Position numbers and translations under genes: made by a program. Positions 28,808 to 64,000 of a DNA stretch of 64,000 nucleotides are shown here, in pieces. Every line of letters starts with the position of its first letter. The first letter of the stretch is position 1. The stretch is from Botryllus schlosseri. Its lineage: Eukaryota. The notes under the pieces were generated by a model that saw only the letters and a list, made by a program, of their open reading frames with translations, was not told the origin of the DNA and did not search any database. Location: assembly GCA_051294905.1 (NCBI GenBank), contig CM119371.1:15068001-15132000 (forward strand), given 5' to 3'.

Positions 28808-29859
28808 GATAACCAATCACCTTTAAGGGCTATTTAAGAGAATTGTACTGTCTTGAAAGCAAATTTGATTTATATCACCAGATATTGAAAAATGAGGAGT
28901 GGAGTGGTAACCAACTACATTTATATTGATTGATAATTTCTCAAAAAGTGCAGGCAGGTGCAGTACTGCTACAGTGCTACATATCATGCATAAACCAGAG
29001 AGAGCAAAATTAGAAAACATATGTCCGAATAGAGGCAATACAATAGGGGAGAGGAGGCCAAGATGAGACCCTTTTCTGTTATTTCAATGCCACTCAAAGA
29101 GTAATGCCTTCTGAGGATTAATTTTGGTACCAATGGAAAGCCCCGAAAAAACAGCCCCGAAATTCTACTTGACGAACTGTAAATAGCAGAAAGTAAGTAA
29201 GTAGATCACAAAACATTACGAATTAGAAGTAGAAAAAATCAGATATACTTGAGTAAGTACCAGAAGTAGAGGAAACCTACTTGAGTACTTCGAAAAAGTA
29301 GAAGTACTTCGTTACTGACTACCTCTGGTGATACCTGGGTGAATTCCGGGTACGTTTTGTTTTATATAGCATGGGAGTAGCGATGATTCTCCAAGTTAAA
29401 GTAATAAAAAATAATAATAAAAAAATCAAGAATTGTGTGAACACAAGACACCGATTCCATACCGTAGAGTGGTGATACAGCTGATACAGAGCTGATACAG
29501 CTTTATATCCACAAGGCCCTGTTTATGACTATGGCTTGAGTTATACTAAATAACATACTGGATTTCTTGGCCCTCAAAAATCCTTTCTCAAATATCTCAA
29601 CTTACCTCCGCGGTGAAGGTAAGAAGAGTCACCAAGCAATTCTTGCTCATTACACCACCAATTCATTACAAATTATGAATCAACTAGCAACATCATGAAT
29701 AAAATATAATAATCATGGAATCATTCACTTTTAAAAAGAATTCGGACATCATACACGAATTAAAATGACATCGAAAACCAATTATCTATGGGATCCAGCA
29801 ACAATAAGAGTTTCGCTATTATTTTGTCTTGTAATGTCAGATCTGGTATTCTACTAGAT

Positions 29860-31369: not shown

Positions 31370-34164
31370 TACTAGATAACTAATCTAGGCTATTATGTGT
31401 GCCTTGAACAATAAATTTTGAATCTTGCGAGGCCTTCAATGGAAAATCCCTCCGATAACCATGTCTCAACTTACCCCCATGGTTTTGTCTCATCTTACCT
31501 CCACACCTCAATTATTGTGTAAAATTGAATAAAAAATTTCTGTCCATTACTTTTCAGAGGTAAGTGCATGATTACACTGCTAATTATTACACTCTACCAG
31601 CTCCAACAATAGCTCCAATAATGTTGTTTTATAATATGAAGTACTATGATAGGTATGCCATTACAAACATGAATTCACATAACTGACACAGACTATGAAA
31701 ATATAGTTTTTGGAATTTTTCTGCCCAACCTCAAATCTGTTCGTCTTGTTAATATGGTAGGACTATAGAATGACATTATGAGAGCAACATAGTTGAAGGA
31801 ATATGTCCATCAGAAAATTGTTCTATGAAAAAATTGCATGTCTTCTCATCTTGCCCCGTGTCTCGTCTTGGCCTTCTCTCCACTACAATAAACATCAAAT
31901 ACCGTACTCAGCCTGTTTCGAATGAGCTATATCGTGTAGAACAGTGGGCAGAAGTGGTCTGTAACAAAATACTTTTATAAAGCTGCCCACAAATACACTA
32001 TCTGTATATTGACTTGGCTTGTACTCGAGTCATTGCGCATGACTCGTACCAAGCCATATTACTCGAGAATCGGACGGCCATTACATTGATAACGCAACGA
32101 TAACCGAAGGCGGTCAATAATGAAGTAAATTTTCGAAGGTGACTCGTGTAAAGTCAAATCACTCAATTTCTGGAGGTGACTCGAGTCAAGTCACCATTTT
32201 AAATTGTGTCGATGAGTAATATAAACACATAAAACTATAAGCTATTCACTCAGCACGTCAGCACTGAGCAGTCGTAGGAACAGAGATACATTGCCATTGG
32301 ATTAATATGCTACTAGTACAACCTAAATTGTCAGCTAATCGGTCAATGTATTTGTGACATAACAATGCGCGATATCGCGAACAATCCAACATGTACAAGA
32401 TACATCGATTGATAGTCAACAACGATTACTTGAGTTGATGACTTGAAATTGACTTGTACCTTTTGCTCAGAGTCACGAGTTGACCCATATTTCTGAAACA
32501 CAGAGTCAAGTCATGTCATACCGTACTAAAAAGTTCACTCTTGTGACAAAAACATAAAGACAGACACTCGATTAAGGGGCGGCGAATTTTGGAGAACTGT
32601 TAGCTTTGCTGGACAACAAGGCTTTTTCACCAAGATGCACAATGCGGCATGCATTAACACGTTATTAGCTGCTTTCAATTAAGGCATAAAATTTATACGC
32701 TGCAGGATAGAGTACAACTTTTTAACTTGGTCCGCCAACGGATTTTTTTGCTTTTCCTGTCGCCACAGAGAAAAATAATTGCTCACCCTGCATCACAGAT
32801 TGTTCTAACTTCCCAATGGCCCACACACTAGTTCAACTTAGACAGAAGTCACAGCCACTGCGTGCTTTTTCCGCTTCCAGAGACACCATGATCACCATGA
32901 ACACTACACTGATTGATTAAGTATTTGCTAAATGAAATAGAATAAGAGGCATAAAATATGTTTTGACAGAAACATGAATAATCACAGTCATCACATACAT
33001 GGAGACAGACTGGGCGAAATTTGACTGATTCAACGGCAATTGAAAATTCGAGTCTACAACGAACAATGCATATAACGTATAGCCAAGGATTGACATCACA
33101 AATGACAAGAAAACGGTCAAATGTGGCATCTGTAAGATCCCTCCACCACTGTAGCCAAATCATAATGACCAGAGTTCTAGCAAAAACCAACCTCATGCTC
33201 TGTATGGAACTGGCTCGTGTTTGTGTGTTGAGCAAAATTTCATTTTCGAGAACTGAATTTGTCCGACAGCTGATTATCCGAAGGACAATCCATTCGTATC
33301 AGAAGAATCTCGTCCAACAATCCGAAAAAGTTGTTTTAAATAACCATTTTGAATAATCCCACTCATACAGCTGAACCAGGATGCAATCGAGCAATAGACT
33401 ATCACTAATTTTATTCCTGTGGAAACAAAAACATATAAGACATAAAATTGCAATTGCAGATATAAGAAGAGTGACGTAAACAGACTACGTCGCTAATTTG
33501 AAGCAGGTCTACGAAAATCAATGAAATTTCGACATTACCGCAGATATAGAAGGCAATAATGAGCCGAGTGAGATGTATAAGTGACGGAAATCATTAGGCA
33601 GTCAACATATAGAACAGCCAAACATAAAACCATAAAAAGCAACAACATCTTACATCCTAGCGTCAAAGAAGGCAAATTATTGCAAGATTCTATGGTCATG
33701 AGAGAGTCAACAGTGGATGGAGAAAGTCTCATCCGCTCTATGCCGAAGGTAATCCAGCAATATTTGAAAGAATGCTCATATTGACGTATTCTTAGAATCA
33801 CGTTAGCAGACATGGTCATGGTCAGTAACAAAGCACGCCCTCATGGACCCCACAGACCTACCCAAGTTTTAGTTCAAATTTAGCTCAATTATCGTGCAAC
33901 TGTCAGCTGACTAGTGCAAATGACATCTAGCCTAGTCATTTGTATTTAACAGCTTATCTAGATGTCATTCTGTTCGGCTTGTATATAAAAGGAGAATATG
34001 AATTTTTGTTAACAGATTTTTACCAAAATCCAAACCAAACCAAACATCTCTAAACAGGAAATCTTTGTATCAATTAGCGATTGGCAATTGAAATGAGTTT
34101 GTACAGTAGAATATTTCATCTCAGACGACAATTATGTTTATGTGAGAGAAAGGAAGAGAAAGGA

Positions 34165-34478
34165 CGTAGTTTATTTTCGTCCTTGATGTTTTTGCGGCAT
34201 ATACACCGACTCATGATACACATACACATGATCTGTGCATATGCATACCATGAGTGCATGATGTGCATATGCCACTGGACAAGGAAGGTGCAGATACGGC
34301 TTGTACGGCTTTCTAAGTCTTGCACCACCCGTCCATACTATCCCAGTAATGCATGAGTGCCAAGCAGGGAAGTTATGAATACCAGTGTTACTAATCAGGT
34401 CTTTGGACTGACCCGGCCAGGGATCGAACCCGCGACCTACCGATCAAGAAGCCGGACGCTTCGCCATTACGCTATCTT
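34165..34478 (-). mobile_element. tRNA-derived SINE
   Basis: Minus strand: A box TAGCGTAATGG, B box GGTTCGATCCC, then GGTCAGTCCAAAGAC...CTTCCCTGCTTGGCACTCA central region and AATAAA near the 3' end. 3' boundary approximate. Confidence 0.7.
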
Positions 34479-34894
34479 GTCTTGAGTCTTAAAGTTTTAG
34501 CAGTAATGAAGCAAAACAGCCTCGGGGTTTTCTCTTTTTGAAAATAATACACTTCATGTCATCAACCATTTTGCAAATATGGAGGTTTCACTGACCCCTT
34601 GAAAATGCTTCTCGGTTGTGAACCACAGTTCTAGAGCATTCGTTTCTACTTTGGTTTGAAATAGAACTGCCATGTCTTGGAAACTGATTGCAGATTTCAA
34701 CTTATATTTTTAGTAACATAGCTGACTATTTTGACAACCTGCGGATAGAGGTGAGATGAAGTTAGTGTGATAGATTGAATATGATTTATCAGTTGATTGA
34801 TACAAATAGATCACAGGAACTTTACTTTGTTTACTCAAACGATCAAAACTGTACTTTTAAATTTGTCACTCAAAACTCACAATTTTATTAATTA

Positions 34895-35535
34895 CCGTAA
34901 TTTTTCAAGTATAGTACGCCCCCATGTATAATACGCACCCCTAAAATAGCATGCAAATTCAGGGAAAAAGCCTGTACCCATGTATAGTACGCACCCTGCA
35001 TTTCAGTACATGAATAGTTCCGATTTAGTATACGATGTCATTATATTTTGCGATGTCACTCTTGAACAATCATTACACAACGATCTCTAATCATTATACA
35101 ATTAGCGGGATTGTCTTTAAACGATAGTAGATAGCAGCCAAAGCTTGCGAGGCGGGCGGCGCGATAGTTCAGGCTAGCGACACGACATCTAGAGCACGAG
35201 GAGACCTTTTACAGATGCGATTGCTAATCATTATACAGCTCGCGTACAAACGGCAAACCAACTCAGCAGGAGATCGCGTGCTTGTGCACACGACTCTTGT
35301 TAATTGGCAACACGCTTCCCGCTAATTGGCAGCGTGTTACACTATAATACGGATTACTGTGCGCGATGGATGAAAGTGAAGCGCGATTGGAAACGAAAAT
35401 GAAGAAAGGAGTGATTCAAGTTTTCATCGAGGGAGATTTTTTTCAAGGCTTGTTGTACCCATGTATAATAAGCACCCCCATATTTTAGGGCAAAAAATCG
35501 TGAAAATTTTGCGCATTATACATGGAAAATTACGG
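34895..35535. mobile_element. Tc1/pogo-like MITE, TA TSD
   Basis: TA|CCGTAATTTT...AAAATTACGG|TA with subterminal CATGTATA(A/G)TACGCACCC repeats. Confidence 0.85.
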
Positions 35536-37221
35536 TATTCAAACTGTCACTCAGTATAATGCAGTGGTTCCCAACCGGGTGGGAATTTGGAAATTTGAAG
35601 GGGGGAATCTTGCTTTGGCGTTGTATCGGAAGATACACTGGGTTCACAATGTGTGGTGAGATAGCGCAGTGGTATAATCCACTACTGCAACACCAAGGGT
35701 TGTGGGTTCGAGTCCGACTCCAGAATTCCCACCTAGGTGTTGTGGGTTTATCTAGGCTCCTCCCTGCCATCTCGTCCGTGTACGCGGTGTCTTATAAAAG
35801 CCTAGCAGTGAAGCAGAGAAAAATAATTGCTCACCCTGCATCACAGATTGTTCTAACTTCCCAATGGCCCACACACTAGTTCAACTTAGACAGAAGTCAC
35901 AGCCACTGCGTGCTTTTTCCGCTTCCAGAGACACCATGATCACCATGATCACCATGAACACTACACTGATTGATTAAGTATTTGCTAAATGAAATAGAAT
36001 AAGAGGCATAAAATATGTTTTGACAGAAACATGAATAATCACAGTCATCACATACATGGAGACAGACTGGGCGAAATTTGACTGATTCAACGGCAATTGA
36101 ATATTCGAGTCTACAACGAACAATGCATATAACTTATAGCCAAGGATTGACATCACAAATGACAAGAAAACGGTCAAATGTGGCATCTGTAAGATCCCTC
36201 CACCACTGTAGCCAAATCATAATGACCAGAGTTCTAGCAAAAACCAACCTCATGCTCTGTATGGAACTGGCTCGTGTTTGTGTGTTGAGCAAAATTTCAT
36301 TTTCGAGAACTGAATTTGTCCGACAGCTGAGTATCCGAAGGACAATCCATTCGTATCAGAAGAATCTCGTCCAACAATCCGAAAAAGTTGTTTTAAATAA
36401 CCATTTTGAATAATCCCACTCATACAGCTGAACCAGGATGCAATCGAGCAATAGACTATCACTAATTTTATTCCTGTGGAAACAAAAACATATAAGACAT
36501 AAAATTGCAATTGCAGATATAAGAAGAGTGACGTAAACAGACTACGCCGCTAATTTGAAGCAGGTCTACGAAAATCAATGAAAGTTCGACATTACCGCAG
36601 ATATAGAAGGCAATAATGAGCCGAGTGAGATGTATAAGTGACGGAAATCATTAGGCAGTCAACATATAGAACAGCCAAACATAAAACCATAAAAAGCAAC
36701 AACATCTTACATCCTAGCGTCAAAGAAGGCAAATTATTGCAAGATTCTATGGTCATGAGAGAGTCAACAGTGGATGGAGAAAGTCTCATCCGCTCTATGC
36801 CGAAGGTAATCCAGCAATATTTGAAAGAATGCTCATATTGACGTATTCTTAGAATCACGTTAGCAGACATGGTCATGGTCAGTAACAAAGCACGCCCTCA
36901 TGGACCCCACAGACCTACCCAAGTTTTAGTTCAAATTTAGCTCAATTATCGTGCAACTGTCAGCTGACTAGTGCAAATGACATCTAGCCTAGTCATTTGT
37001 ATTTAACAGCTTATCTAGATGTCATTCTGTTCGGCTTGTATATAAAAGGAGAATATGAATTTTTGTTAACAGATTTTTACCAAAATCCAAACCAAACCAA
37101 ACATCTCTAAACAGCAAATCTTTGTATCAATTAGCGATTGGCAATTGAAATGAGTTTGTACAGTAGAATATTTCATCTCAGACGACAATTATGTTTATGT
37201 GAGAGAAAGGAAGAGAAAGGA

Positions 37222-37535
37222 CGTAGTTTATTTTCGTCCTTGATGTTTTTGCGGCATATACACCGACTCATGATACACATACACATGATCTGTGCATATG
37301 CATACCATGAGTGCATGATGTGCATATGCCACTGGACAAGGAAGGTGCAGATACGGCTTGTACGGCTTTCTAAGTCTTGCACCACCCGTCCATACTATCC
37401 CAGTAATGCATGAGTGCCAAGCAGGGAAGTTATGAATACCAGTGTTACTAATCAGGTCTTTGGACTGACCCGGCCAGGGATCGAACCCGCGACCTACCGA
37501 TCAAGAAGCCGGACGCTTCGCCATTACGCTATCTT
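37222..37535 (-). mobile_element. tRNA-derived SINE (duplicate copy)
   Basis: Copy of 34165-34478 inside the tandem duplication. Confidence 0.7.
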
Positions 37536-37951
37536 GTCTTGAGTCTTAAAGTTTTAGCAGTAATGAAGCAAAACAGCCTCGGGGTTTTCTCTTTTTGAAA
37601 ATAATACACTTCATGTCATCAACCATTTTGCAAATATGGAGGTTTCACTGACCCCTTGAAAATGCTTCTCGGTTGTGAACCACAGTTCTAGAGCATTCGT
37701 TTCTACTTTGGTTTGAAATAGAACTGCCATGTCTTGGAAACTGATTGCAGATTTCAACTTATATTTTTAGTAACATAGCTGACTATTTTGACAACCTGCG
37801 GATAGAGGTGAGATGAAGTTAGCGTGATAGATTGAATATGATTTATCAGTTGATTGATACAAATAGATCACAGGAACTTTACTTTGTTTACTCAAACGAT
37901 CAAAACTGTACTTTTAAATTTGTCACTCAAAACTCACAATTTTATTAATTA

Positions 37952-38594
37952 CCGTAATTTTCCAAGTATAGTACGCCCCCATGTATAATACGCACCCCTA
38001 AAATAGCATGCAAATTCAGGGAAAAAGCCTGTACCCATGTATAGTACGCACCCTGCATTTCAGTACATGAATAGTTCCGATTTAGTATACGATGTCATTA
38101 TATTTTGCGATGTCACTCTTGAACAATCATTACACAACGATCTTTAATCATTATACAATTAGCGGGATTGTCTTTAAACGATAGTAGATAGCAGCCAAAG
38201 CTTGCGAGGCGGGCGGCGCGATAGTTCAGGCTAGCGACACGACATCTAGAGCACGAGGAGACCTTTTACAGATGCGATTGCTAATCATTATACAGCTCGC
38301 GTACAAACGGCAAACCAACTCAGCAGGAGATCGCGTGCTTGTGCACACGACTCTCGTTAATTGGCAACACGCTTCCCGCTAATTGGCAGCGTGTTACACT
38401 ATAATACGGATTACTGTGCGCGATGGATGAAAGTGAAGCGCGATTGGAAACGAACATGAAGAAAGGAGTGATTTCAAGTTTTTCATCGAGGGAGATTTTT
38501 TTCAAGGCTTGTTGTACCCATGTATAATACGCACCCCCATATTTTAGGGCAAAAAATCGTGAAAATTTTGCGCATTATACATGGAAAATTACGG
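37952..38594. mobile_element. Tc1/pogo-like MITE, TA TSD (duplicate copy)
   Basis: TA|CCGTAATTTTCC...GGAAAATTACGG|TA. Confidence 0.85.
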
Positions 38595-38620
38595 TATTCA
38601 AACTGTCACTCAGTATAATG

Positions 38621-39593
38621 CAGTGGTTCCCAACCGGGTGGGAATTTGGAAATTTGAAGGGGGGAATCTTGCTTTGGCGTTGTATCGGAAGATACACTGG
38701 GTTCACAATGTGTGGTGAGATAGCGCAGTGGTATAATCCACTACTGCAACACCAAGGGTTGTGGGTTCGAGTCCGACCGAGGTCGACTCCAGAATTCCCA
38801 CCTAGGTGTTGTGGGTTTATCTAGGCTCCTCCCTGCCATCTCGTCCGTGTACGCGGTGTCTTATAAAAGCCTAGCAGTGGGCAGCTACAGAATAAAAAAA
38901 TGAAGAAAATTGGCCTGGTGTAAATGACCATGCTAGTCAACACACACCATGAACACCTCAAAATAAGAACAAACTGGGTTCAAATTTTTTTTTAATTTTT
39001 ATGGTATAACTGTTAAGTAGAAACTAGTTCTTTACAATTGTATGTTTCTTTGGCGGATTTTAAGCTGGGTGTATTTTTAAATGCCTTCCATAAATATTAC
39101 AACCCCTGATAAAGTGAGGCTCGTGGACGATTTCGTTGGGCCCGCGACAGCCTATTGACCAAATTGCTACTAAGCAGGAAAAAGTCCAGCCAAATTCAGC
39201 ACAAGGCCGCTGGTGAAATTCTTTACCTTTTAAAGTCAACATGTGAGCTAGCGTAAAAAACATATTCGACATAAAACATCAAAATATATCAAATTCATTG
39301 ATTCGACTCAAGGCCATAACAAGCGGACTTGGTGCTATATTTTTCGTCATCGACTACCCGACCGGGAAAAAACAGGTCAAATTTAGCTGTACTTTACCAA
39401 AGTGTAGTGCGGTCCGCATTCGACAAAGTTCGGACATATCTGAATATGTTTGGCCAGTAATTGCTCAGTCAACAACTGGTTGTGCATTAAAAAGCACCCT
39501 TTTTTAGTCACAGGCAAATTTTTCATAGGGGGGAAATTGTAGCTCAAATATCGGCCAAGGGGGCCACGAGACTAAAAAGGTTGGGAACCACTG
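38621..39593. mobile_element. hAT-Charlie-type MITE
   Basis: CAGTGGTTCCCAACC...GGTTGGGAACCACTG; TSD GTATAATG/GTGTAATG; truncated copy at ~35562-35810. Confidence 0.85.
38706..38972 (+). mobile_element. Full-length tRNA-derived SINE (second family)
   Basis: A box TAGCGCAGTGG, B box GGTTCGAGTCC, A-rich tail; 10-bp flanking direct repeat ACTGGGTTCA (38696-38705, 38973-38982). Confidence 0.8.
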
Positions 39594-39798: not shown

Positions 39799-41412
39799 CT
39801 ATAGCTTCACCATTACAGATCCGCAAACTTCGAACAAATGATTTGGTTCTTTTTCCATGTTACACCATTTTTTGTTACATAAATCGTACTTCTCAATGTC
39901 ATGCGAGTCACCAAACTGATCCACTACAAAAATCCAATTACCGATGCGATAAGCACTGTTGTTGCCATGAGTTAAATTCATAGATGACAACGAAGTCCAT
40001 TGAGCTGAAGTAACATTGTAACATTCTACATTGTTGAGAATATCATCTTCACTCATCCCACTCGTCACAAATATCTTTTGGTCAACTGCAACAACACCAC
40101 AGCCATCAGCAGGATATCTCATTGGCTCGAGATCAACCCACTCTGATGAGAATGGAGTGAGTCTGCAGAATGAAGAAACTTCGACACCATCTCGAAAACC
40201 TCCGATACAATAGATGGAACCATCCAATGACACGAGACTAGCATTGGAAATTGCTGACGGTTTGTTTGGCAGTAAAAACCATTGATTTACAGATGGGTCA
40301 AATCTTTCGACATCAGCTTTTTCTGTAAAACCACTTCCTCCAATAACGATTATGGATCCGGTTGAACAAACTGAGCTTGGAAATAAACCATGGTCGCAAA
40401 TCATATCATCCATCTTTTCCCATTTCGAATTTTTTCTCTGAAAATTGAGTTGATGAACAGATTTAGCTTCAGAAAAGACATAAATATATGAGTCCAAAGA
40501 AATCGCTGTGAAATCCATTGAGAAATCAAACTTTGCATCATGAAACTTTTCTATTTCCTCGGTTATTGGATTGAAGGATTGGAGGCATTTTGTCTCATCA
40601 TCAAAAAGAATTATCAATTTGTCAGCCTCATTATCTTCTTTTGCCTTAATGGAAGCTTTCAGAATATGACCAGTGAATGCCTTGTACAGCACGGAGTCAT
40701 TACTTATGTGGGGGTGAGTTTCTAAAATCTGTTGCAAATATGCCGGGGATATTAGATCTAATTTGATTACTTCGAGAAATTCATGCAACAATTCTCTTTT
40801 ACTTTGAGATGTGTCGATCCACTTGAGCGATAATGCGAGTTTTTCTTCTTCCCATAATTTCAATTTTCCCGACTTCAGAAGACCGAGAAGGTCATCTTTG
40901 TCAATGCTTTCAAATCCAGCTTGGTCTGAGATTTCCATGATGTTATCTTTTAAAAATATTCTGCATCTCAAAGAAACATCAGCCAGTCCATAAATATCAC
41001 CCACATTTCTGGTAGAGAAGTAATTTTTAATGGTGATTGATTCCTCCAAAATATCGGATACGGCTTGCTTTACGTCATCCAGCTGCATCATCATTGCGAC
41101 GTGAAGAAGTTCAATGATATTTCCATCAGGAATCTCAAATTTACCCGAATATATGAAATCGATGCAATTTTTCACACACTGAGAATCCACATCTTTCAAA
41201 ACAACTTTTCTGTCGCGACTCTCTTTTGTGTCATATTTCAACATGGCTCTAAAATAAGCGGAACCAGCCGACAAGACATTTTTGTGTGTACGATAGACAT
41301 CATCTCCGACTTGGATTATGAAATCACAATGATCATCATCTTGCTTCATTCGATGTAATTCCTCGAGCATCCTCACAGCATGCCTCGCCACATCTTGACA
41401 AACAACCTGCAT
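39799..41412 (-). CDS. BTB-BACK-Kelch protein, subfamily B (B2), 537 aa from the paralog-aligned ATG
   Basis: Same domain motifs as B1. Start placed at MQVVCQ by alignment with B1/B3; the in-frame ATG at 41505 lies upstream of a putative splice acceptor. Confidence 0.93.
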   Translation of the reverse strand: MQVVCQDVARHAVRMLEELHRMKQDDDHCDFIIQVGDDVYRTHKNVLSAGSAYFRAMLKYDTKESRDRKVVLKDVDSQCVKNCIDFIYSGKFEIPDGNIIELLHVAMMMQLDDVKQAVSDILEESITIKNYFSTRNVGDIYGLADVSLRCRIFLKDNIMEISDQAGFESIDKDDLLGLLKSGKLKLWEEEKLALSLKWIDTSQSKRELLHEFLEVIKLDLISPAYLQQILETHPHISNDSVLYKAFTGHILKASIKAKEDNEADKLIILFDDETKCLQSFNPITEEIEKFHDAKFDFSMDFTAISLDSYIYVFSEAKSVHQLNFQRKNSKWEKMDDMICDHGLFPSSVCSTGSIIVIGGSGFTEKADVERFDPSVNQWFLLPNKPSAISNASLVSLDGSIYCIGGFRDGVEVSSFCRLTPFSSEWVDLEPMRYPADGCGVVAVDQKIFVTSGMSEDDILNNVECYNVTSAQWTSLSSMNLTHGNNSAYRIGNWIFVVDQFGDSHDIEKYDLCNKKWCNMEKEPNHLFEVCGSVMVKL

Positions 41413-42020
41413 TATGGTCACCAATAACTTGTCAAGGATATTTCTATAGATTATAGTGCTGTTTTTAAAATACACATGGTTAGAGTCAATGCATACACAA
41501 ATCATTCATATCGACAAAATAAACTGCACTAATAACTGCCGGTAACCACCTGCGTTAATATTGATTGATAATTTCAGTGGAATAAAGCCACACATTTTCG
41601 AAAATTGCAGAGACATTCAATGAAACTTTCAAATAGAAGTCAGTCAATTATAAGAGTAGAACAAAATCATCAACTTTAGCCTCTACGACTGGTTACAGAA
41701 AACATATACCTGAATGAGGAAATGAAAACAGAACATACAAAATACTTAGAGAGGGTTGAACTACCTAGCTGTAGAAGAAGCATAAACTATGATCGAGGCA
41801 AGATCATTCATCGATTTTTCTTTGACCGATGGACATTTTTTCATAATACACTGAGTATTGAAGCTACGTTTGAGATTTCTAACTATTCGTTTGGTAGTGA
41901 ATGATGTGATCCAAACGTTTCATTAACCACTTCGAATTACTATCACCACAAGTGGTATAGTGAATTGTGTAAATGTCGTAAGTTTGCACGCTAGCAGTTC
42001 TACGTAAAGTCCTTTTAAAC

Positions 42021-51382: not shown

Positions 51383-54065
51383 TGTGTACATTAGGGTTGT
51401 TCAGAATTGACCGACTTTCAAAAAGTCTAGGTTTTCAGTCCGATTCCCATGCCTTATACCTTAAAAACAAATTCTGGCAACTTTTTTTTGTAATTCATCC
51501 CCTGCATCCGCGAGCACATTGCCGTTTTCTCATGCACCTAAAAATTTCTTCGGAATTAGGGGATTCCCCCGTTGTCAGTGACTCAATAGTAATGGCGTGT
51601 GTTCTCATTGACATGACGCGTATGTTCCAGCGCTGATGAAGCGCTGAGCACGGCTGTGAAACGGGGATCATTGATTAGTCAGGTGCCTTGCTGCTTTGTT
51701 GTTGATGGACTGTGTTTACGATTGAGGTGCAGGACTTATCAGGCGGCGTTTTGACTCATGCTATTAGCGAGTTTAGCGCGTGAATAGTGAACGTAGTATT
51801 ATAGCAGTATACAACTATTTGATATAATAGACCTGATACTCTTTTCCTTTCTACTGGGATAGAAACAAAGCTTGCAATGCCTATTCCAGTGACTGGGGAA
51901 AACCGCCAGTCGGTTGCTCTAAATTTTTTGTTATATCCCAAGATATCAATATACTGGTATGAGTTTTTCCAATTTAGGAATAACTATCTCCGATAATCTA
52001 CAACTGGATCTCATCTGGCTACTCCTGCACAAGTTATGCAGTATGTGTTCGACCTAAAACTCTAAAAGAACTGAAATGTTTTCCACTATTCTTTGTTGCT
52101 GGACTGAGTTTATGTATTTCTGTTTTTCTAGGATTAGCTGTAGTGCGAAATGTCTGAAAAAAAAAGAAAATCGTCATCTAGTGCAGCAGTACCGAATAAA
52201 ACTAGAAGAACACGATCGCAGACACAGCATTTCTTAGTTGGGCCATCTGAGGAAGCCATTACGGGATCGAAGTTGCCCACTCTGAGGCAAGTTATGCAAT
52301 ATGTGCTACACCTGAGAGAGCATTCATTTTTAAAAAATGTACCAGTCAAGTCGCACATCCAGATCGCAGTAGATGAAGTGATCGGTTTTTGGTTACTTGC
52401 TGGCATGAAGACTATCACAAAAGTCAATGCCACTAAAAGATTGGAAACAGTATGGACACAATGGCTGTCACTAAAAAAAACTGCAGGCCGGCAATATGTA
52501 TCAAAAAAACAAAGCGACTTTGAAGCCAAACTGAGTAAGCTATGGGATATAGGAGCCCCCGACGCAATAGCGACAATTGAAGCAAGTAGACTTCTTTCTG
52601 ACGATAAAAAACGTGAAGACATAGCATTTTATCAGGATCAAAGGGGTCCGAGATTAGCAACGATCGGTGGCAAAGATAAAGTGTTGAAAGCGAAAATCAT
52701 GCAACAAAAGAGACGGACCATGAGTGCAAGAGAGTCTGCACCAGCATCAAGTAGCGAAGGTGAATTTACAGAAAGCTCATCTATATCATCACAGGTAGCT
52801 GATACTTCTCACAGCACTGATTTTGAACTTGCACAGTCGACATCTGGTCATTCCGCTAAATTTGTGACTCTAAAAGCTCCTGTAAACCTATTCAGCGACG
52901 AAGACCTATGCCAGGTTTTTGATCGCTTGAAAGTCAGTGATAATGCCGCTACCATGATAACTGCAGCACTGATTAAAGCTTGCGATGGCAACCCTAATGA
53001 CTTCCATCTTTCAAGATCTGGGACCTATCGACGACGCATTGCAAATCGTTTGAAAATTTCCGAATCTATCTTTGAAAAAATATCCACCAATCCACCAGAG
53101 CACATTGCATTGCACTGGGATGGAAAGCTCACTAAGAGTCGTCTAGGATATCAATTTGAGGCCTTGGCAGTGCTCGCATCGTCTGCGTATTCCGGCGCAT
53201 TTAAGAAAGGGAAACTTCTTGGCATTCAAACTCTGGAGAGTGCTACAGGAAAAGCACAAGCTGATGCATCATTTGAACTGCTGGAACTTTGGAATTTAAC
53301 AAAATCTGTTAGAGCTCTTGTGTTTGACACAACATCCTCAAACACTGGTAAAAACAAAGGTGCGGTTCCGTTACTTGAACAATTGATTAACAGGAAAGTT
53401 TTCTACAATGCCTGTCGCCATCATATTTATGAACTGGTTATTCGAGAGGTTTGGAAGTGTTTGTTTGGATCGACAACCACAGGCCCTGAAAACACGGATT
53501 TTAATACCTTCAAGAAGAAGTGGAAACATATTGATAAATCAAGAAGCTATAAAACGCTGAAGTTTATTGAAGGCAGCTGGTTGGGGATGAAAGCTGATGA
53601 AGCAAAGCAAGAAATAATTCCACTGATGAAACCCAATGATGGAAAGCAGAAAGAAGTCTTGATAAGAGATGACTACAGAGAATGTGCAACAGGCACCTTG
53701 GCGATTTTGGATGACAAATATGTTGATCATCGTTTTCGCAAGCCTGGTGCTACTCATAGCGCTAGATGGATGGGTCAAGTCCTGTACTGTCAAAAAATGT
53801 TCATGTGGAGTGAGCAAATGGACTATTCTGAAGAGTTCATTGAAAAGTTGGAACGAATCAATACATTCATTGCTTTGTTTTATGTTCCAGCTTGGTTGAA
53901 AACTGGTATTGCATGTGACGCACCTTGGAATGATCTCAAATTCCTTCATGACATGAAAAACTTTTCATTATGCGATCTCGCTGTTGCTGATGTGGCATAC
54001 AAGAAATTGCGAAAACATCATTGGTATCTAACTGAGGAAATGGTGGTGTTTACCATGTTCTCGGC

Positions 54066-56257
54066 GGTCCGTGGACATATTAGCATGCGACACAATAGCA
54101 AGCGACACTTGAGCATGCGACACTTGAGCATAGCGACTTTTGGTCATGGCGACTCGTGGGCATGTAGACATATCAGCACAGGGACATATTAACATGAGGA
54201 CATATTAGCATGGGGACACATAAGTATAGGGACACACGAGCATGGATACACGTGAGCATAGGGACACGTCAACATGGTGACAATTTAATAAGTGCCACTT
54301 GAGCATGGTGACACATGAGCATGCGATACATGAGCCTTGACGACACATGAGCATGGGTACACAAGAGCATGGGCACACATGCGCATATGGACACATGGGC
54401 ATGGGGACATAAGAGCAAATGTGCACATGAGCATGGGGTCATGTACGCATGCGACACTTGAGCATGCGACACGTCTACATGCAGACACTTGAGCATGCGA
54501 CACGTGGATATGCAGACACTTGAGCATGCGACACTTGGGCATGCGACATTTGGGCATGCGACACTTGAGCATGCGACACTTGAGCATGTGACACTTGAGC
54601 ATGCGACACTTGAGCATGAGACACTTGAGCATGCGACATTTGAGCATGTGACATTTGAGCATGTGGGCATGCTACACTTGAGCATGCGACACTTGAGCAT
54701 GCGACACTTGGGCATGCGACACTCGAGCATGCGACTTTTGAGCATGCGACACTTAAGCATGTGACCGTATAGATTTGTCTGAAAAGCTCCAAATATCACG
54801 GTAAAGCGATAAAGGTTGTCATTGCTCCACATATATTGGAATCGTTTACACGTATCAGACGAACTAAAAGAATATATCCTTTTGTGAGACGAAAGCGATT
54901 GCAAATTCGCATTTCGACACGGGACTTGTTATATTATTTTAGTTTTACGTGCCGTGGGTGGGTAGGGGGGACATTAGGGTTGGAGGTGGGTTAGGGTTAT
55001 GATTAGGGTTAGGTTAGGGTTAAGATTAGGGTTTGCTTGGGGTTAGGATTAGGGTTAGGTTAGGTTAGGGTTATGATTAGGGTCCATATTGGAGTTAAGG
55101 TTTCCCAAGATTAGGGTTGGGGGAATGGATATTAGGGTTGGTTACGGTTAGAGTCAAGGTATCCCAAGATTAGGGTTCGGGGGTGATGAGTATTAGGGTT
55201 GGGAGGGGGATATTAGGGTTGGTTAAGGTTAGGGTTAGGGTTAAGGTATCCCAACATTAGGGTTGGGGGTGATGAGTATTGAGTATTAGGGTTGGGAGGG
55301 GGGATATTAGGGCTGGTTAGGGTTAGGGTTAAGGTGTTAAGGTATCCCAAGATTAGGGTTAGAGTTAGGGTTAGGATTAGGCTTTGCGTTAGGGTTACGG
55401 TATCCCAAGATTAGGGTTGAGGTGATGGGTATCAAAGTTGGGAGGGGGGATATTAGGGTTGGAGGAGGGGAGATATATCATTTTCGGACTGGTATAAATC
55501 CATGATTTTGACGCTAGTTAACTACACACTAAGAAATGACAAATGCTTAAGTGTCGCATGCTCAAGTGTCGCATGCCCAAGTGTCGCATGCTCAAGTGTC
55601 GCATGCCCAAGTGTCGCATGCTCAAGTGTCGCATGCTCAAGTGTCTCATGCTCTAGTGTCGCATGCTCTAGTGTCGCATGCTCAAGTGTCGCATGCTCAA
55701 GTGTCTCATGCTCAAGTGTCGCATGCTCAAGTGTCTCATGCTCAAGTGTCGCATGCTCAAGTGTCGCATGCTCAAGTGTCGCATGCTCAAGTGTCGCATG
55801 CTCAAGTGTCGCATGCTCAAGTGTCGCATGCTCAAGTGTCGCATGCTCAAGTGTCGCATGCTCAAGTGTCGCATGCGCAAGTGTCCCCATGCTCATTTGT
55901 CACCATGCTAACATGTCACCATGCTCATATATCACCATGCACAAGTGTCAACATGCTGAAGTGTCCCAATGGTTATGTGCCCCCATGCTCACTTGGTACC
56001 ATGCCCATGTGTAACCATGTTGATTAGTCCCCGTGCTAATGTGTAACCATGCTCAAGTGTCGCATGCTAATATGTTTCCATGCCCATGTGTCCCCTTGCT
56101 CATGTTTCACCATGCTGATATGTCCCCATGCGCATGTGTCCCCATGCTCATGTGTCCCTATGCTCATGTGTTACCATGCTAATGTGTCCTCATGCTATAG
56201 CGTCGCATGCTAAACTGTCGTTTTTCATTGTGTCGCATGCTCATATGTCGGGCAACC
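54066..56257. mobile_element. Foldback-type (MuDR-like) non-autonomous element with 15-bp tandem-repeat inverted arms
   Basis: 9-bp TSD GTTCTCGGC (54057-54065, 56258-56266); ends GGT...ACC with shared GACATAT(T/G)AGCATGCGACACAAT; left arm (GACACTTGAGCATGC)n ~54066-54765; right arm is its reverse complement ~55544-56257. Confidence 0.88.
54956..55471 (+). repeat. Telomere-like (TTAGGG/TTAGG)-rich interstitial tract
   Basis: Many TTAGGG units and G-runs interleaved with GGTATCCCAAGA and GGGGGATA spacers; strong G/T strand bias. Confidence 0.9.
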
Positions 56258-57941
56258 GTTCTCGGCTAATCCAAAGATTCCTGACAAACTGAAGGAAGCG
56301 ATGGCTGCTAAATTGCTGAAAATGCCAATCCCTGAACAATTTCGCAGAGGTATGCCTCTCAGTCTGATCTCTGACTCTGTCTCTGAGTCAACGAGTATGG
56401 TCGATTTGATTGGGCCAGAATCGTGGTTTCTATTTGATGCTATACATGTGGAACATGATTGGTTGAGTCTTCCAGTTTCGGAATGGCATACTGATCCGGA
56501 TTTCGTGACTGCTCAAGAATTTGTGAATACTGTTGAAGTAGTTAATGATGCAGCAGAGCGTATGGTAAAATTGAATACCGACTATGCTGCGTTCATAACG
56601 GATGACGAAAAACAGCGAGCGAGCCTCCTACAAGCTGTGGAAGATCACCGGAACAGATATGCAGATTTCTCGAAAGCAACCATATCATCCACCTGATTTA
56701 TGTAATATTTTGCCAAGTTGATCTCTTTCTTTGCCTTAGTTTTTCGTTTCCTGTGATGTGTTTGCCTTAGTTTTTCGTTTCCTGTGATGTGGCTGTGAGT
56801 GGATGTTACATTTACAGTTGTATTCTTGCACATGGGGATCCAGGAAATTGATGAACAGTGCCGGGTAGGTTTGAGGGGTGTAGGATATGTGATCCAACAA
56901 AATGACTATCAGTTTTAGGTAGTTTTGAGCAGTTCTAAGGCAGTGTGGGACATGGAAATGATATCCTGAACTAGGAATGCCTTATATAGTGGGGTTTTGT
57001 AGCACTCCAAACCGCAACAGCTGCATAAATCCATGTTATATGTCACTTTAACTAGGCTAGGTAAAATCGTGACACTCAGATTTTAGGGGAATCCCCTATT
57101 TTCAGCTGCTATTCTTCCAGCTCAATGTGCACACGGATGCAGGGGACGAGTTATAAAAAAAAGTAGCCAGAATATGTTTTTAAGGTATAAGGCATGGGAA
57201 TCGGACTGAAAACCTGGACTTTTCGAAAGACGGCCAATTCTGAACAACCCTAGTGTACATGTAACAAATTCATTGTAAAAGCCCTGTTCATGGACACATC
57301 GTCAGGAGTTCAACAGAAAACATGATCACAGAGTCCAAATTTATTGAGAATTCATTAAAATTGCTGGAAGAAGGTGCTAGGTAAAGACTGTGCTAAGAAA
57401 CGTCATAAAAAAATATTTCAAACAGCAATGTTTCCATCACATTCTGAAAGCAATTTCTAGATCATTCTTAACAATCCACTACACCCCATACAAAAGTGAT
57501 ATGGTAGATGCTGGAAGTCGTCAAATGAAGTACTTAATATTTTCGAAGTACTCAAGTAGGTTCTCTCAAATTGCACTACTCATTTAAGCAATAAGACTAC
57601 TTCTACTTTACTATTTGTGGGGTAAAACTACTTCACTTGTACATCATGAAATATTTCAGCTAGTTTTGTGGTGAGTTTGCAACGCTTCTGTGAGTGTGAT
57701 TATCTTAGGCCTAGAAGTAGCCCGTGTTATCGTAGCTAAATCTTCATCAATTTTTAGTGTCATCAGTCATTTTAAGCAGTCGAAGATACATTTAAAAATG
57801 ACAACCCATCTCGACTTAATGTACCTTTTCAAGTTTATTTGAATAATCGTAGTGCTAAGATGTCGAAAATGGACAGAGTGTAAATTTGTGGTGTGATCTC
57901 TAATGGACCAGTAACGCGGACAACTTTTACCAGCTCGGTGA

Positions 57942-59567
57942 CTACACCTTAACCATTACGGTTCCGCATACACAAAATGACGGACCTGCATTCAAACGAA
58001 TGTCATACCATTCCTTCTTCGATAAATCATACTTCTCAATATTATCTGAAAGGCCACACTCATCTACTGCATAAATCCAGTTGCCAATTAGATATGTAGT
58101 AGTCCAACCACGACAACGAATCATCGGTGGCAACGAAGTCCACTGTGCTGAAAGGACATCGTAACATTCAACAGAATTAATAGCGTCTCCTTCACTCCAA
58201 CCACCGCTCACAAATATTCTTTGATCAACTGCAACAACACCACAGTCATCAAGCGGATATCTCATTGGCTCAAGGTCAACCCACACTGATGACGATGGAC
58301 TGAATCTGCAGAATGAAGAAACAAAATTGCCATCCTCCCCTTTACCTCCGATACAGTAGATGTAATCGTTCAATGATACGAGACCTGCATCAGAAATCAC
58401 TGTAGGTTTGTTCTCCAGTTGGAACCATTGATTTACAGATGCGTCGAATCTTTCCACGTCCCTGGTTGTCGTAAGATAACTGCCACCGATGACGAATATG
58501 TATCCGGAAGAACAAACAGAGTGAGGAAAGATACCATGGTCACAAATCATACTGTCGGTCTTTTCCCATTTTGAATTTTTGCAATGAAAGTTGAGTCGAA
58601 AAACAGATTTAGTCTCGCATAGAACGTAAATATACGAGTCGAAGGTAATTGCAGCGAAATTCAACGAGGACTGAAACTTCGCTTCATGGAACATTTCTAT
58701 TTGCTCGGTTACTGGATTGAAGGATCGGAGGCATTCTCCTTCCCGATCAAAAAGAATAATCAATTCACCAGCAGCATTTTCTTCTTTTGCCTTGTTAGAA
58801 GTATTCAAAATATATCCAGAAATTGACTTGTACAATTCATAATCTTTGCTTATAAGGGGTTGAGTTTGTAAAACATGCTGCAAATACGCCGGAGAGATTT
58901 TATCAAAGTGGATCACTTTGAGACCTTCGTGCAAATATTCCTCTTTACTGTGGCATTTGTCGATCCACTTGAGTAATAACATAAGTTTTTCTTCTTCCCA
59001 TAATTTGGATTTTCCAGACTTCAAAATACAGAGAAGTTCAGCTTTTTCCACGCTCCCGAATCCAGCTTGGTTTGAGATTTCCATGATATTTTCTTGTAAA
59101 AATTCTCTGCAATCTGAAGACACACCTACCAGTCCATAAATATCACCAATATTTCTTGTAGAGAAGTAATTCTCTGTGGTAATTGATTCAGTCAAAATAT
59201 CGGATATCGCATCCTTTACATCTTCTAACTGCATCATAATTGCGACGTGAAGAAGTTCGAACATTTTGCCATCAGGAATCTCAAATTTGCTTGAATATAT
59301 GAAATTGATGCAACTTTTCACACACTCGGAATCTACATCTTCTAATACAGCTCTTCCTTGGCGACTCTCTTTTGTATCATGCTTCAGCATAGCTCTGAAA
59401 TAATCCGAACCTGCTGACAATATATTTCTGTGAGTGTGATAGATATCATTCCCGACTTGAACTATGAAATCACAATGATCTTGATCTTGCTTCATTCGAT
59501 ATAATTCCTCCATCATCTTCACTGCACGTTTCTCTGCACGTTTAATAGCAACCTGCACCATGATCAT
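57942..59567 (-). CDS. BTB-BACK-Kelch protein, subfamily B (B3), 541 aa from first ATG
   Basis: BTB HCDF...THRNILSAGSDYFRAML, BACK and canonical Kelch repeats; uninterrupted ORF; ATG at 59567 or 59561. Confidence 0.94.
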   Translation of the reverse strand: MIMVQVAIKRAEKRAVKMMEELYRMKQDQDHCDFIVQVGNDIYHTHRNILSAGSDYFRAMLKHDTKESRQGRAVLEDVDSECVKSCINFIYSSKFEIPDGKMFELLHVAIMMQLEDVKDAISDILTESITTENYFSTRNIGDIYGLVGVSSDCREFLQENIMEISNQAGFGSVEKAELLCILKSGKSKLWEEEKLMLLLKWIDKCHSKEEYLHEGLKVIHFDKISPAYLQHVLQTQPLISKDYELYKSISGYILNTSNKAKEENAAGELIILFDREGECLRSFNPVTEQIEMFHEAKFQSSLNFAAITFDSYIYVLCETKSVFRLNFHCKNSKWEKTDSMICDHGIFPHSVCSSGYIFVIGGSYLTTTRDVERFDASVNQWFQLENKPTVISDAGLVSLNDYIYCIGGKGEDGNFVSSFCRFSPSSSVWVDLEPMRYPLDDCGVVAVDQRIFVSGGWSEGDAINSVECYDVLSAQWTSLPPMIRCRGWTTTYLIGNWIYAVDECGLSDNIEKYDLSKKEWYDIRLNAGPSFCVCGTVMVKV

Positions 59568-60157
59568 CACCAACCAGTCTTCAAGGATGAATAATAGTAC
59601 TATCTAGGCTACATTAGATATAGCCTACCATGCTGCAAAAGTAAATATAGCCGATATTGAATCACTAGGAGTAAAAATACAGACATAATTTTATCACTAG
59701 AATACCAGCATTGACAAAATGTAGATAACCAATTGCATTAACATTGATTGATAATTTCACGAACATGGCAGGTTGGTAGTTTGAATGAAACCGAATGTGT
59801 GTTAAATCACAATAATATTCCAATTCAATTTATTAGAAACAATTTCATCATTTTAATACACCACGATACTGCGATACAATGAAAAAAAGGATTTTGTCGA
59901 AACGACTTGGAGTAATCTTTGAAATCAGACACCCACCTGTGCTAGGCGATGTAAAAAGGAGGTGTGAACACTGAATGAAAAGTAGATGCAGGTAATAAAA
60001 AAGGAAAGGTAATGACAATCACAATGTGTAACTCGAAACAAGTTTACTTCAGACCCACACTCGATTAAAACGGTACTTTCAAATTTGCCATTACAAATTC
60101 ATAATTTTATCACTCAACTGAGCCCCGGCACACAGTCAACTGTCTTTTACTCGCTAC

Positions 60158-60338: not shown

Positions 60339-60489
60339 CTTGCTACCCAACCATTATTTAACAACAAATATATATGTAAGATCACTTTGATGTTGCAGCA
60401 CAGCAGAAACTTACTCGAATCTCGAGAATGCATGCTTAAACATGATTCAGAGAGGTTTTCAGTCAACACTAGAATATCACATATTCTCG

Positions 60490-62015
60490 AGAGCATTCAT
60501 AGATGGTAATGAAGTCCACTGAGCTGATGTGACATCGTAACATTGTTGATGAGCTCCTTTCCACTATGACCGCCCGTCACAAATATCTTTCGATCAACTG
60601 CAACGACACCACTATCACACACAGGATATCTCATCGGTTCAGGGTCAACCCACTCTGATGAGGATGGAGTGAATCTGCAGAATGAAGTAACTTCGACAAC
60701 ATCTCGTCATTCTCGCCAACCTCCAAAACAATACTCAGAATCATTTAACGGTACAAAACTTGCGTCAAAATTGTTATAGGTGAATATACCAGTTGACGCC
60801 ATCGATTTACCGAGGGGTCAAATCTTTCCACATCATATTTTTCTCTAATAAAAATTCCTCCAATAACGAATATTGATCCAGACAGAGATACTGAGCGAGG
60901 ATATAGTCCATGGTCAAATCTTTCCACATCATATTTTTCTCTAATAAAACTTCCTCCAATAACGAATATTGATCCAGACAGAGATACTGAGCGAGGATAT
61001 AGTCCATGGTCCCAAATCATATCTTCCATACGTTCGTTCCCCTTTGGAATTTTTTCTTCAAAAATTGAGTCGATGAACAGATTTATTCGCACATAAAATG
61101 TAAATATACATATCGAGAGAGATCGTGAAATAAGTCAAATGCTTAAATGTGGCATTGTGGAACTTGATTATTTTCTCCGTAATTCGATTATAGGATCAAA
61201 TACAATCGGTGTACTCATCAAAGAGGATTATCAATTATTTTTGTTGACAAATGCAACTGACACTTCTTGAATATGTTCACGAATGTGCTTGTATGACTTG
61301 GAGTCGTTCCTGATTATGGGATGAGTTTCTAGATGTTGCAAAATGGAAAATTAACTCCGTCAAACTCGATCAATTCGAGACATCAATGCAAATATTCCTT
61401 CTTTTTTCACATGTCTCAATCCGTTTTAACGATAACTGTAGTTTTTTGTCTTCGCATAAGTGTGATTTCTTGGACTTCAAAACACCGATACAGTTTTTAC
61501 AACTGTTTCAAATCCAGCCTTGTTTGCGATTTCCATGATATTATTTTTGTAAAAATAATCTGCATCGTGAAGTGACATCAACCAGTCCATAAATATCATC
61601 AACATGTCTTGTGGAGAAGTAATTCTCAACAGTAATTGATTCCGCCAAAATATCGGATATTGCATCCTTCACATCTTCCAACTGCATCATAATTGCGACG
61701 TGAAGAAGTTCAATGGTTTTTCCATCTGGAATCTCAAATTCATTTGAATAAATGACATTGATGCAATTTTTCACACATTCCCAATCTACATCTTTTAAAA
61801 GGACTCTTCCTTCACGACTCTCTTTTGTGTCATTCTTCAGCATGACTGTAAAATATACGGAACCAGCCGACAATACATTTTTTGTGGGTATGATAGACAT
61901 CATCTCTGACTTGAATTATGAAGTCACCGTGATCGTTATCTTGCTTCACTTGATGCAATTCCGTCATCATACACTTTCCACGCTTTTCTGTATCCATAGA
62001 TAGCATTCGCACCAT
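60490..62015 (-). pseudogene. KLHL subfamily B pseudogene (B4)
   Basis: BTB, BACK and Kelch homology split over several frames (ORFs 61830-62015, 61541-61903, 61477-61665, 60745-61092); 96-bp internal duplication; last blade deleted before the shared 3' flank. Confidence 0.92.
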
Positions 62016-63028
62016 GATCGCTAATCTCTAATTAGGTATATGCTGTACAAAAGAGAATAGCAGATGTAATCTGTACTGACAGTAAACATGAAGGCATCAC
62101 ATACCACTAGTCAGAACAGAGAAAATCAATATGAACTGAATATACTAGCATTCCGATGCACATAGCATATAACGAAGGTGTGAACAAGAAAATAGTCAAA
62201 ATTGACATCAGGGTACTAATCAAAATATCCAGATTGGAAACAAACATCAACTTCAGGCCGCCTGGTGTAAGCAAATGGATACTCTTTCACCAGGTAGCCA
62301 TATGGAAATCTAAAAGTCCTAGCCAATATCTTCGGCTAATTCCAGAGTTTTTACCTGACTCAACGTCAGATCAGCTAGTGTTACCAGATGGGCAATCCTC
62401 TATCCTCTATGAAACAAAGACAAAGAAAGCCTATAGGATTTGAAAGTTGACTTATGGCAACTCCGTTTGCTCTTGTTACCGTGTTAAAGGGCAGGCATGT
62501 TCTTGAGAATCTAAATCTGTCCGACACCTTAGTATCGCAACGATAATCCATTTCACTCATGAGGAACTTATCCAACAATCTGAAAATTCTGTTTCAGATA
62601 ATACATTGGAGAATCGCAATCATACATCGGAACGAATACAAATGAAAAAATAATTTGGACTTGCAAGTCTAGAAAGAGCAACGCAGTGAGACAACACCAT
62701 TAAATTAATGCAAGTCAACGAGTGTAAATGAACGTTCAACATTATCGCAACTCGGATCGGATGCAAAAAAAACAGCTGACAAAGATGAATGACAAATGAC
62801 AGAGTTTATAAAAACAGTCAATCAATAAACTGTAACAAAAAATGAACATCAAAGAGTCATAAAATGTAAATTGCTTCAAGACTTCAGGAGCAAAAGAGAA
62901 TCGGCAGTGGATGCAGACATCTCATCTGCTTTTTGCTCAGATTATTCCAGAAATATTTGAAAGAGCATACGAATTTAGGCTGACATGATTCTAAAAACGT
63001 TGGCTAATCGGCGCAAAGAACATCTAGC

Positions 63029-63180
63029 CAAAGGTGGTCAGTAATGAAGTACTGATAATTTTTTGGAGTACCCGAGTAGGTTTCGCCTATTTACACAACC
63101 TGCTCAGCTGGTTATAGACTTCGTCTACTTGAACAGTTTGCTGGGAAAACTTCTCACTTTTTAAATTTTGGCCACCTTTG
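63029..63180. mobile_element. Short AGTAC-rich hAT-type MITE
   Basis: CAAAGGTGGTCA...TGGCCACCTTTG; same family as 6475-6715. Confidence 0.6.
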
Positions 63181-63543
63181 GCTAGATGCAGCTACAGTTA
63201 TAGGTTGGATATGGGTTAGATTCGGTTGATTCAAATGGAATGCGGCAATATATCACAGGAAAAAATCATTTCCGTCATTCAAACAATTGAAACGATACTC
63301 TTAATGTATCACTACAACAATCTACAATTTTCTCACTAAAATGAGCTGTAATTTGATGGATCTGTCACATAGTCAATGTCGTTTCTGATATGAATACTAA
63401 CCACTTTGCAGTTACAGCATAACCAACTTATCCAAATTTCATGAATGCAGAATGTTCACACATTATTCTCAGAGGTTTTGAGCCCACATTAAAATATCTC
63501 ACGTCCTAAGATTCGAGAGGCCTTCAATTGAAGACACAGTTAT

Positions 63544-64000
63544 CTATATCTTCACCATTGCAGATCCGTGCCAGTACTTTACAACTGCTTCCTTTTTCAC
63601 GCTATGCCAATTTTTGTTCAATAAATCATACTTTTCAATGTTTTTATAGCCATCCACTACAAAAATACAGCTGCCAATGTGATACGCAGAATTGAATCCA
63701 TGACATATATTCATAGATGACACCGACGTCCATTGAGCTGATGATACATCGTAACATTCTACGTTCTTGTTGAGATCTTGTTCACTATAACCGCCGGTCA
63801 CGAAGATCTTTTGATTAACTGCAACAGCACCACATCCATACACAGGATATCTAAATGGTTCGAGGTCAACCCACTCTGAAGCGGACGGAGTGAATCTGCA
63901 GAATGAAGAAACTTGGGCAACATATTTCAATCCTCCAACACTGTAAATGGAATCATCCAGTGACACAAGTGTTGCTTTGCAAGTTGCTGTAGGCTTTTTT
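63544..64000 (-). CDS. C-terminal part of a subfamily B BTB-BACK-Kelch gene (B5), cut by the window edge
   Basis: Frame is open to the edge: KKPTATCKATLVSLDDSIYSVGG...EWVDLEP...VTGG...SAMVKI*; 3' flank is most similar to that of B1. Confidence 0.85.
   Translation of the reverse strand, partial: KKPTATCKATLVSLDDSIYSVGGLKYVAQVSSFCRFTPSASEWVDLEPFRYPVYGCGAVAVNQKIFVTGGYSEQDLNKNVECYDVSSAQWTSVSSMNICHGFNSAYHIGSCIFVVDGYKNIEKYDLLNKNWHSVKKEAVVKYWHGSAMVKI

Follow-up and report, generated by a model that had tools for sequence, protein, structure and literature searches.

The window analysed here, a stretch of 64,000 nucleotides with about 39% GC and a cluster of BTB-Kelch genes, carries a foldback element in which inverted arms of ~700 bp each enclose a non-coding spacer of 775 bp. 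The element is without coding capacity and hence is a non-autonomous DNA transposon: the longest reading frame in the spacer spans 73 codons, the remaining frames of the element are translated repeats, and an Rfam scan at E up to 1 gave no match. We are fairly confident that it is a type-2 Foldback transposon, with the Mutator (MULE) superfamily as its most likely affiliation, and that its TTAGGG-rich middle travels as a passenger. This copy interrupts an otherwise intact 781-aa hATm-like transposase frame, and public sequencing runs indicate a dispersed family with dozens of different insertion sites. An earlier note on this DNA had proposed a mobile element of the Mutator/Foldback type that makes a 9-bp duplication, and the target-site duplication (TSD), the empty site and the many flanks support that proposal. 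The insertion and its host transposon, which has terminal inverted repeats (TIRs) of its own, are laid out as follows.

51392..57252, + strand: host hATm-like DNA transposon; length 3660 bp once the insertion is removed; ends TAGGGTTG; TIRs of ~130 bp, 91%; 8-bp TSD GTGTACAT
52150..54065, + strand: host transposase frame interrupted by the insertion, 5′ part (reading frame)
54057..54065, + strand: left TSD of the element, GTTCTCGGC, 9 bp (sequence)
54066..56257, no strand: non-autonomous foldback element, 2192 bp, ends GGT...ACC; right end from loose ends at 56257, left end inferred by symmetry
56258..56266, + strand: right TSD of the element, GTTCTCGGC (sequence)
56267..56696, + strand: 3′ part of the host transposase frame (reading frame)

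Removing the element together with one copy of its TSD restores a single open frame of 783 codons from stop to stop, or 781 from the first methionine. The intact host frame and the perfect TSD indicate that the insertion is recent, and a random 9-bp identity at one set position pair has a probability of ~6e-6. The uninterrupted junction of the transposase, corresponding to the empty site, is found in two contigs of run X9, two contigs of run X4 and 23 RNA reads of run X24. The coordinates, inverted arms, 9-bp direct repeat and G...C ends given by the earlier note are all present in the sequence. The duplication measures 9 bp if the left end has the symmetric GGT start; a TSD of 8 bp is possible if the left end is asymmetric and begins with an extra C.

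By its termini and TSD length, the host transposon appears hATm-like. Its ends, TAGGGTT, agree at six of seven bases with the TAGGGTG-like termini of hATm elements, and its 8-bp TSD also fits the TAGGGTG ends and 8-9-bp TSDs that the excerpted source gives for that group (PMC6004678). A Pfam search with both transposase pieces returned nothing significant; 309 homologues were retrieved, the best at 57% identity, and these are widespread and mostly unnamed or hypothetical. The host family is represented over 56258-57252 in RNA reads, and because some of these cross the uninterrupted junction, intact copies may be transcribed; the X24 reads lie on both strands about equally and therefore give no direction. 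In the 3′ region of the host, a perfect 31-bp tandem duplication occupies 56730-56791, where long X4 and X9 contigs are ~22 bases shorter, which suggests that not all family members have it. A gene-less element of 1475 bp at 21722-23196 has ~610-bp TIRs and TAGGGTTGTTCAGA ends as in the host; its 8-bp TSD, GTATACAT, is one base off GTGTACAT, which hints at a target preference.

Arms, ends and the dispersed family

The arms and termini comprise the following features.

54067..54076, + strand: left 10-bp terminal palindrome, 4/4 pairs, 2-base centre, one base inside the end
54074..54452, + strand: left arm, outer domain, degenerate 14-bp motif, mostly 16-bp period
54453..54761, + strand: left arm, inner domain, homogeneous 15-bp units CGACACTTGAGCATG
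55542..55885, − strand: right arm, inner domain, homogeneous 15-bp units
55886..56249, − strand: right arm, outer domain, degenerate units, 16-bp period
56206..56257, − strand: terminal ~52-bp block common to many family members that diverge further inside (loose ends, depth peak)
56247..56256, − strand: right 10-bp terminal near-palindrome, 3/4 pairs, one base inside the end

Tandem arrays at 54082-54765 and 55543-56196 run in opposite orientation and display the hallmark of type-2 Foldback elements, long terminal inverted repeats made of tandem subterminal repeats. When the two arms are aligned to each other, 566 of 739 columns are identical, and a computed structure predicts that the strand folds back arm on arm, the right arm pairing with 547 of the 700 bases at the left end. 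A motif parse recovers 44 and 45 copies of a 14-bp motif in the two arms. Outer copies (n = 47) average 80% identity to the motif and are followed by a 2-bp linker in 36 cases, while inner copies (n = 42) average 96% and carry a 1-bp linker in 37 of the 40 that have one. The greater internal homogeneity of the arms described previously is thus confirmed. The 15-bp unit given for the arms as a whole holds for the inner domain, about 300-340 bp per arm, to which this period is confined; the outer ~370 bp, with their 2-bp linkers, follow a 16-bp period. The inner arrays probably represent one unit that was recently expanded or homogenised, and the arms thus grade from older units with a 16-bp period to 15-bp units homogenised only lately. 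Within the right arm, the stretch 56056-56084 is similar to the left terminal block in the arm alignment, and some X1 contigs jump back from 56250 to 56048.

The extreme ends of the element, GGTCCGTGGAC and GGTTGCCCGAC, have only GGT in common at their start and differ at five positions. At each end, bases 2-11 are palindromic around a 2-base centre, starting one base in from the end; the two end sequences are unlike, with the fourth pair kept. We spotted this palindrome after reading about the mosquito element Muta1, and therefore give it modest weight.

Four public runs were aligned to 55900-57900, using contigs of X1, which may be the source sample, contigs of X4 and X9, and ~6% of the raw RNA reads of X24. 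Loose-end figures derive from 24 of 456 rows, a set that leaves out X1 behind 56258, and contig counts and depths do not equal copy numbers. Among the rows listed, sequences leave the alignment behind 56257 in 57 contigs of X1, 20 contigs of X4 and 20 reads of X24, where the flanks agree with one another at only 0.38, 0.40 and 0.61, respectively; this low agreement means that many different flanks join one end. Smaller numbers of loose ends lie behind 56258 (9 in X4 and 14 in X24) and 56259 (19 in X1 and 11 in X4), again among the rows listed, such that 56257 accounts for 20 of the 40 in X4 across these three positions. At 56259 the count exceeds the ~4% expected from random flanks and comes close to the 21% expected if the aligner extends through a mismatch plus a match; the excess may reflect alignment clipping. 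An end at 56258 would leave almost no sequences departing at 56257, and the loose ends therefore fix the right end of the family at 56257, ...CAACC.

A second group of loose ends lies before 56205-56207 (among the rows listed, 38 in X1, 3 in X9 and 8 in X24), and the X4 depth reaches ~880 over the terminal bin vs 55-78 over inner bins, about tenfold. This pattern suggests that many relatives share the ends of this copy, the last ~52 bp, rather than its interior. Near-identical relatives exist as well, since one X9 contig matches the right outer arm over 329 bp (55927-56255) with one difference. No second full copy was found in the 64-kb window or in viral, metagenomic and prokaryotic collections. 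The arm unit pattern had no match in prokaryote genomes or viral contigs; in metagenomes, a 30-mer of the unit had none, and a 20-mer had two single matches outside any array, one of them in bacterial-looking coding DNA. The match at L001, 899-918, lies in an AT-rich, possibly eukaryotic contig and is probably due to chance. The scanned collections hold non-animal genomes, so these blanks say little.

The TTAGGG-rich core

Between the arms lie a core and two spacers.

54766..54945, no strand: non-repetitive spacer, nothing similar elsewhere in the window
54946..55473, + strand: G-rich core, 25 TTAGGG (longest perfect run 2), 3 canonical G4 motifs
55474..55541, no strand: short non-repetitive spacer (sequence)

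The 25 copies of TTAGGG in the 528-bp core are all on the + strand, a count reached by none of 500 dinucleotide shuffles (mean 3.9) and none of 500 trinucleotide shuffles (mean 9.1). In the rest of the window, TTAGGG occurs at 0.39 per kb, counted over both strands. Three of the five canonical G4 motifs of the window and two of its six strongest G4Hunter-type windows fall within the core, in keeping with its earlier description as TTAGGG-rich and G-quadruplex-prone. The core is telomere-like in vocabulary and degenerate. Its proximal ~95 bp (54988-55083) form a degenerate hexamer array with a 73% match, beyond which it is built of 58-96-bp compound units starting GGTATCCCAA. A telomere array was ruled out, as no perfect run exceeds two units, TTAGGG makes up 29% of 516 bp, and a compound repeat occupies the distal part. 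We also considered whether the core is a separate nested insertion and rejected this, since it has no inverted ends and contains just its own internal direct repeats. The word TAGGGTTG, which is the first eight bases of the host transposon, has 9 of its 16 window copies in the core; a decoy for the host hATm transposase was rejected and the overlap taken as a coincidence of G-rich words.

The core resembles short or degenerate interstitial telomeric sequences in being an internal, G4-prone cluster of TTAGGG and its variants, and differs from them, as far as the excerpted sources describe them, in having at most two perfect units in a row, a compound minisatellite structure and a position inside a transposon (PMC6410037, 10.64898/2026.03.19.712643). 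A range of 2-25 is quoted for short interstitial telomeric sequences; the longest run here, two, just reaches it, and the 25 copies are dispersed. In the parts of an amphioxus genome paper and a coral MITE paper that were covered, no telomere-like transposon cores are mentioned, and a literature search to which most subscription papers lay outside found no DNA transposon with a TTAGGG-rich core.

The earlier note inferred a mobile carrier of telomere-like DNA that might recruit telomere proteins, seed satellites or create fragile sites; the degenerate core and the many relatives that diverge from this copy near the end do not support this so far. In its strong form, this reading holds that the core is constant and selected, binding telomere-repeat (Myb/TRF-type) proteins or forming G-quadruplexes, and that the family spreads functional interstitial telomere-like sites. 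The one-stranded enrichment and the G4 motifs speak in its favour, as do 21 YTAGGGTTR words in the spacer, a motif that we take to be the TRF1 half-site. Also in its favour, a degenerate TTAGGG region of human 2q14 is fragile and is bound by both TRF1 and TRF2, and transposition has been proposed as a source of interstitial telomeric sequence (PMC6410037). We nevertheless consider this reading unlikely. The same excerpted source has TRF binding depend on conservation and length, against which stands a perfect run of at most two units. Many relatives diverge 52 bp inside the end, and variable interiors are the norm among Muta1 derivatives (PMC5225508). The pattern of shared ends only thus points away from a constant telomere-like core, and a second copy of the core was not seen in the non-animal collections searched (prokaryote genomes and viral contigs): its patterns had no match in the former and one isolated match, without a TTAGGG cluster, in the latter. 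If the core were nonetheless fixed, with its ~20 putative half-sites, and under selection, every transposition would deliver a portable telomere-like site to a new interstitial position, and recruited telomere proteins might shield the element or its breaks. With a core constant across copies, a single genome would also allow a direct test of whether interstitial telomeric sequence can stem from transposition.

Since the last ~52 bp seem to be all that many relatives have in common with this copy, the core is probably cargo of a subfamily. It would then be passenger DNA, dispensable for movement, and might have its origin either in slippage or in the capture of a degenerate (sub)telomeric repeat.

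Affinities and movement of the element

Modular TIRs with repeat domains around a variable non-coding middle are also found in the sea-urchin TU elements, and a foldback element is known from Ciona; our literature search found no ascidian or Ciona foldback. The closest structural parallels come from published Mutator-type foldbacks, compared here on the basis of excerpts of each source. In Muta1, a MULE and type-2 Foldback of Aedes aegypti, the TSDs measure 8-9 bp, the termini bear an imperfect 10-bp palindrome whose bases 5-6 are unpaired, and 12-bp repeats with 3-4-bp linkers give a 15-16-bp period; it has >300 derivatives, most with variable interiors (PMC5225508). Our element shares the 8-9-bp TSD and the 15-16-bp period of its subterminal repeats, and its 10-bp palindromes with a 2-base centre may correspond to the terminal palindrome of Muta1; like the Muta1 derivatives, which vary in their middles, it is gene-less and has unequal repeat numbers. 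In vitro and in yeast, more repeats lead to stronger binding and excision by the Muta1 transposase, and the terminal motif is required for binding and joining (PMC5499845). The likeness is structural and by description, and there are differences: the arms here measure ~700 bp with 44-45 units compared with 145 bp and 9 in Muta1, they are divided into two repeat domains around a TTAGGG-rich middle, and the palindrome is offset by one base rather than being the terminal motif itself.

Tm1, a Phantom-like Mutator/Foldback of root-knot nematodes, is flanked by 9-bp TSDs and bears asymmetric end motifs of 7 bp; its composite TIRs contain tandem repeats of ~14 bp, and one of its subgroups carries a histone hairpin as non-coding cargo (PMC3169594). 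The 9-bp TSD, the non-identical end motifs and the ~14-bp tandem motif recur in our element, whereas the end and repeat sequences of Tm1 are different, its length is about 1 kb and its cargo is not telomere-like. Rehavkus likewise combines a 9-bp TSD with long inverted termini holding tandem arrays (PMC6446971, 10.1101/2024.12.02.626372); autonomous copies encode a PHD-bearing transposase, of which there is none in this element. Rehavkus arrays can expand into satellites in Tribolium (10.1101/2024.12.02.626372), as can the arm repeats of the Drosophila virilis foldback Tetris, which has modular TIRs with repeat domains, a non-coding variable middle and TSDs of 8-10 bp, but units of ~220 bp and, in the excerpted account, no telomere-like middle (PMC4079207).

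Because this anatomy matches Muta1 and Tm1, we infer that the element is moved by a MULE transposase acting in trans and that its middle is cargo. By analogy, it appears to work like a known non-autonomous foldback of the Muta1/Tm1 type. An autonomous element elsewhere in the genome would supply the transposase, which would bind the tandem 14-bp motifs of both arms, recognise the short terminal palindromes, cut at the GG...CC ends and paste the element with a 9-bp duplication. This copy would have landed recently in a young hATm-like transposase gene, knocking it out, and would thus represent a known class of element caught soon after disabling another transposon. The TSD of 9 bp at this locus (8 possible) lies within the 8-11 bp range reported for MULEs (PMC6446971), and the ~700-bp arms exceed the >100 bp of TIR used as a MULE criterion (PMC5499845). 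TSD length alone is insufficient to assign a superfamily, and exceptions have been noted (PMC4079207).

A foldback moved by some other superfamily that leaves 8-9-bp duplications is a further reading, which we consider improbable. Merlin, Zisupton and hAT elements, for example, make duplications of this length. The 8-bp reading of the TSD is formally possible and hAT elements are young in this window; against this, the ends of the element are unlike the local hATm ends TAGGGTTG, and the arm design fits Muta1 and Tm1 in detail. The earlier note had also offered a 7-bp TSD, with CGGT...ACCG ends. A single locus permits this reading, with the duplication TTCTCGG, and it would make the element a foldback of the Galileo/P type. 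Galileo is a foldback of the P superfamily, with a TSD length of 7 bp. The element would then have to end at 56258, yet 56257 is where the majority of the listed contigs and reads from other copies stop, the largest class among the rows listed (57 in X1, 20 of 40 in X4 and 20 in X24); this reading is largely refuted and has very little probability left. That the structure is immobile, either an artefact of the assembly or a local inverted minisatellite duplication that encloses the scar of an old telomere, would suit the lack of a second full copy in the window and in the viral, metagenomic and prokaryotic collections searched but is refuted by the clean TSD, the restored reading frame, the empty site in three runs and the many unrelated flanks at one end.

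Neighbouring features of the window

Five long single-frame genes of the BTB-BACK-Kelch type lie on the − strand at 6849-8435, 16164-17750, 27194-28816, 39799-41505 and 57942-59603. They are 73-83% alike within groups, and a Pfam scan was run on two of the five. Broken further copies lie near 60400-64000, where a 96-bp tandem duplication at 99% (60816-61011) sits within a Kelch-like gene remnant. The window also holds a 622-bp palindromic MITE-like element at 5393-6014, with TAGGGCGG ends and no clean TSD, and a tandem duplication of about 3.06 kb at 32766-38879, with 98.9% identity.
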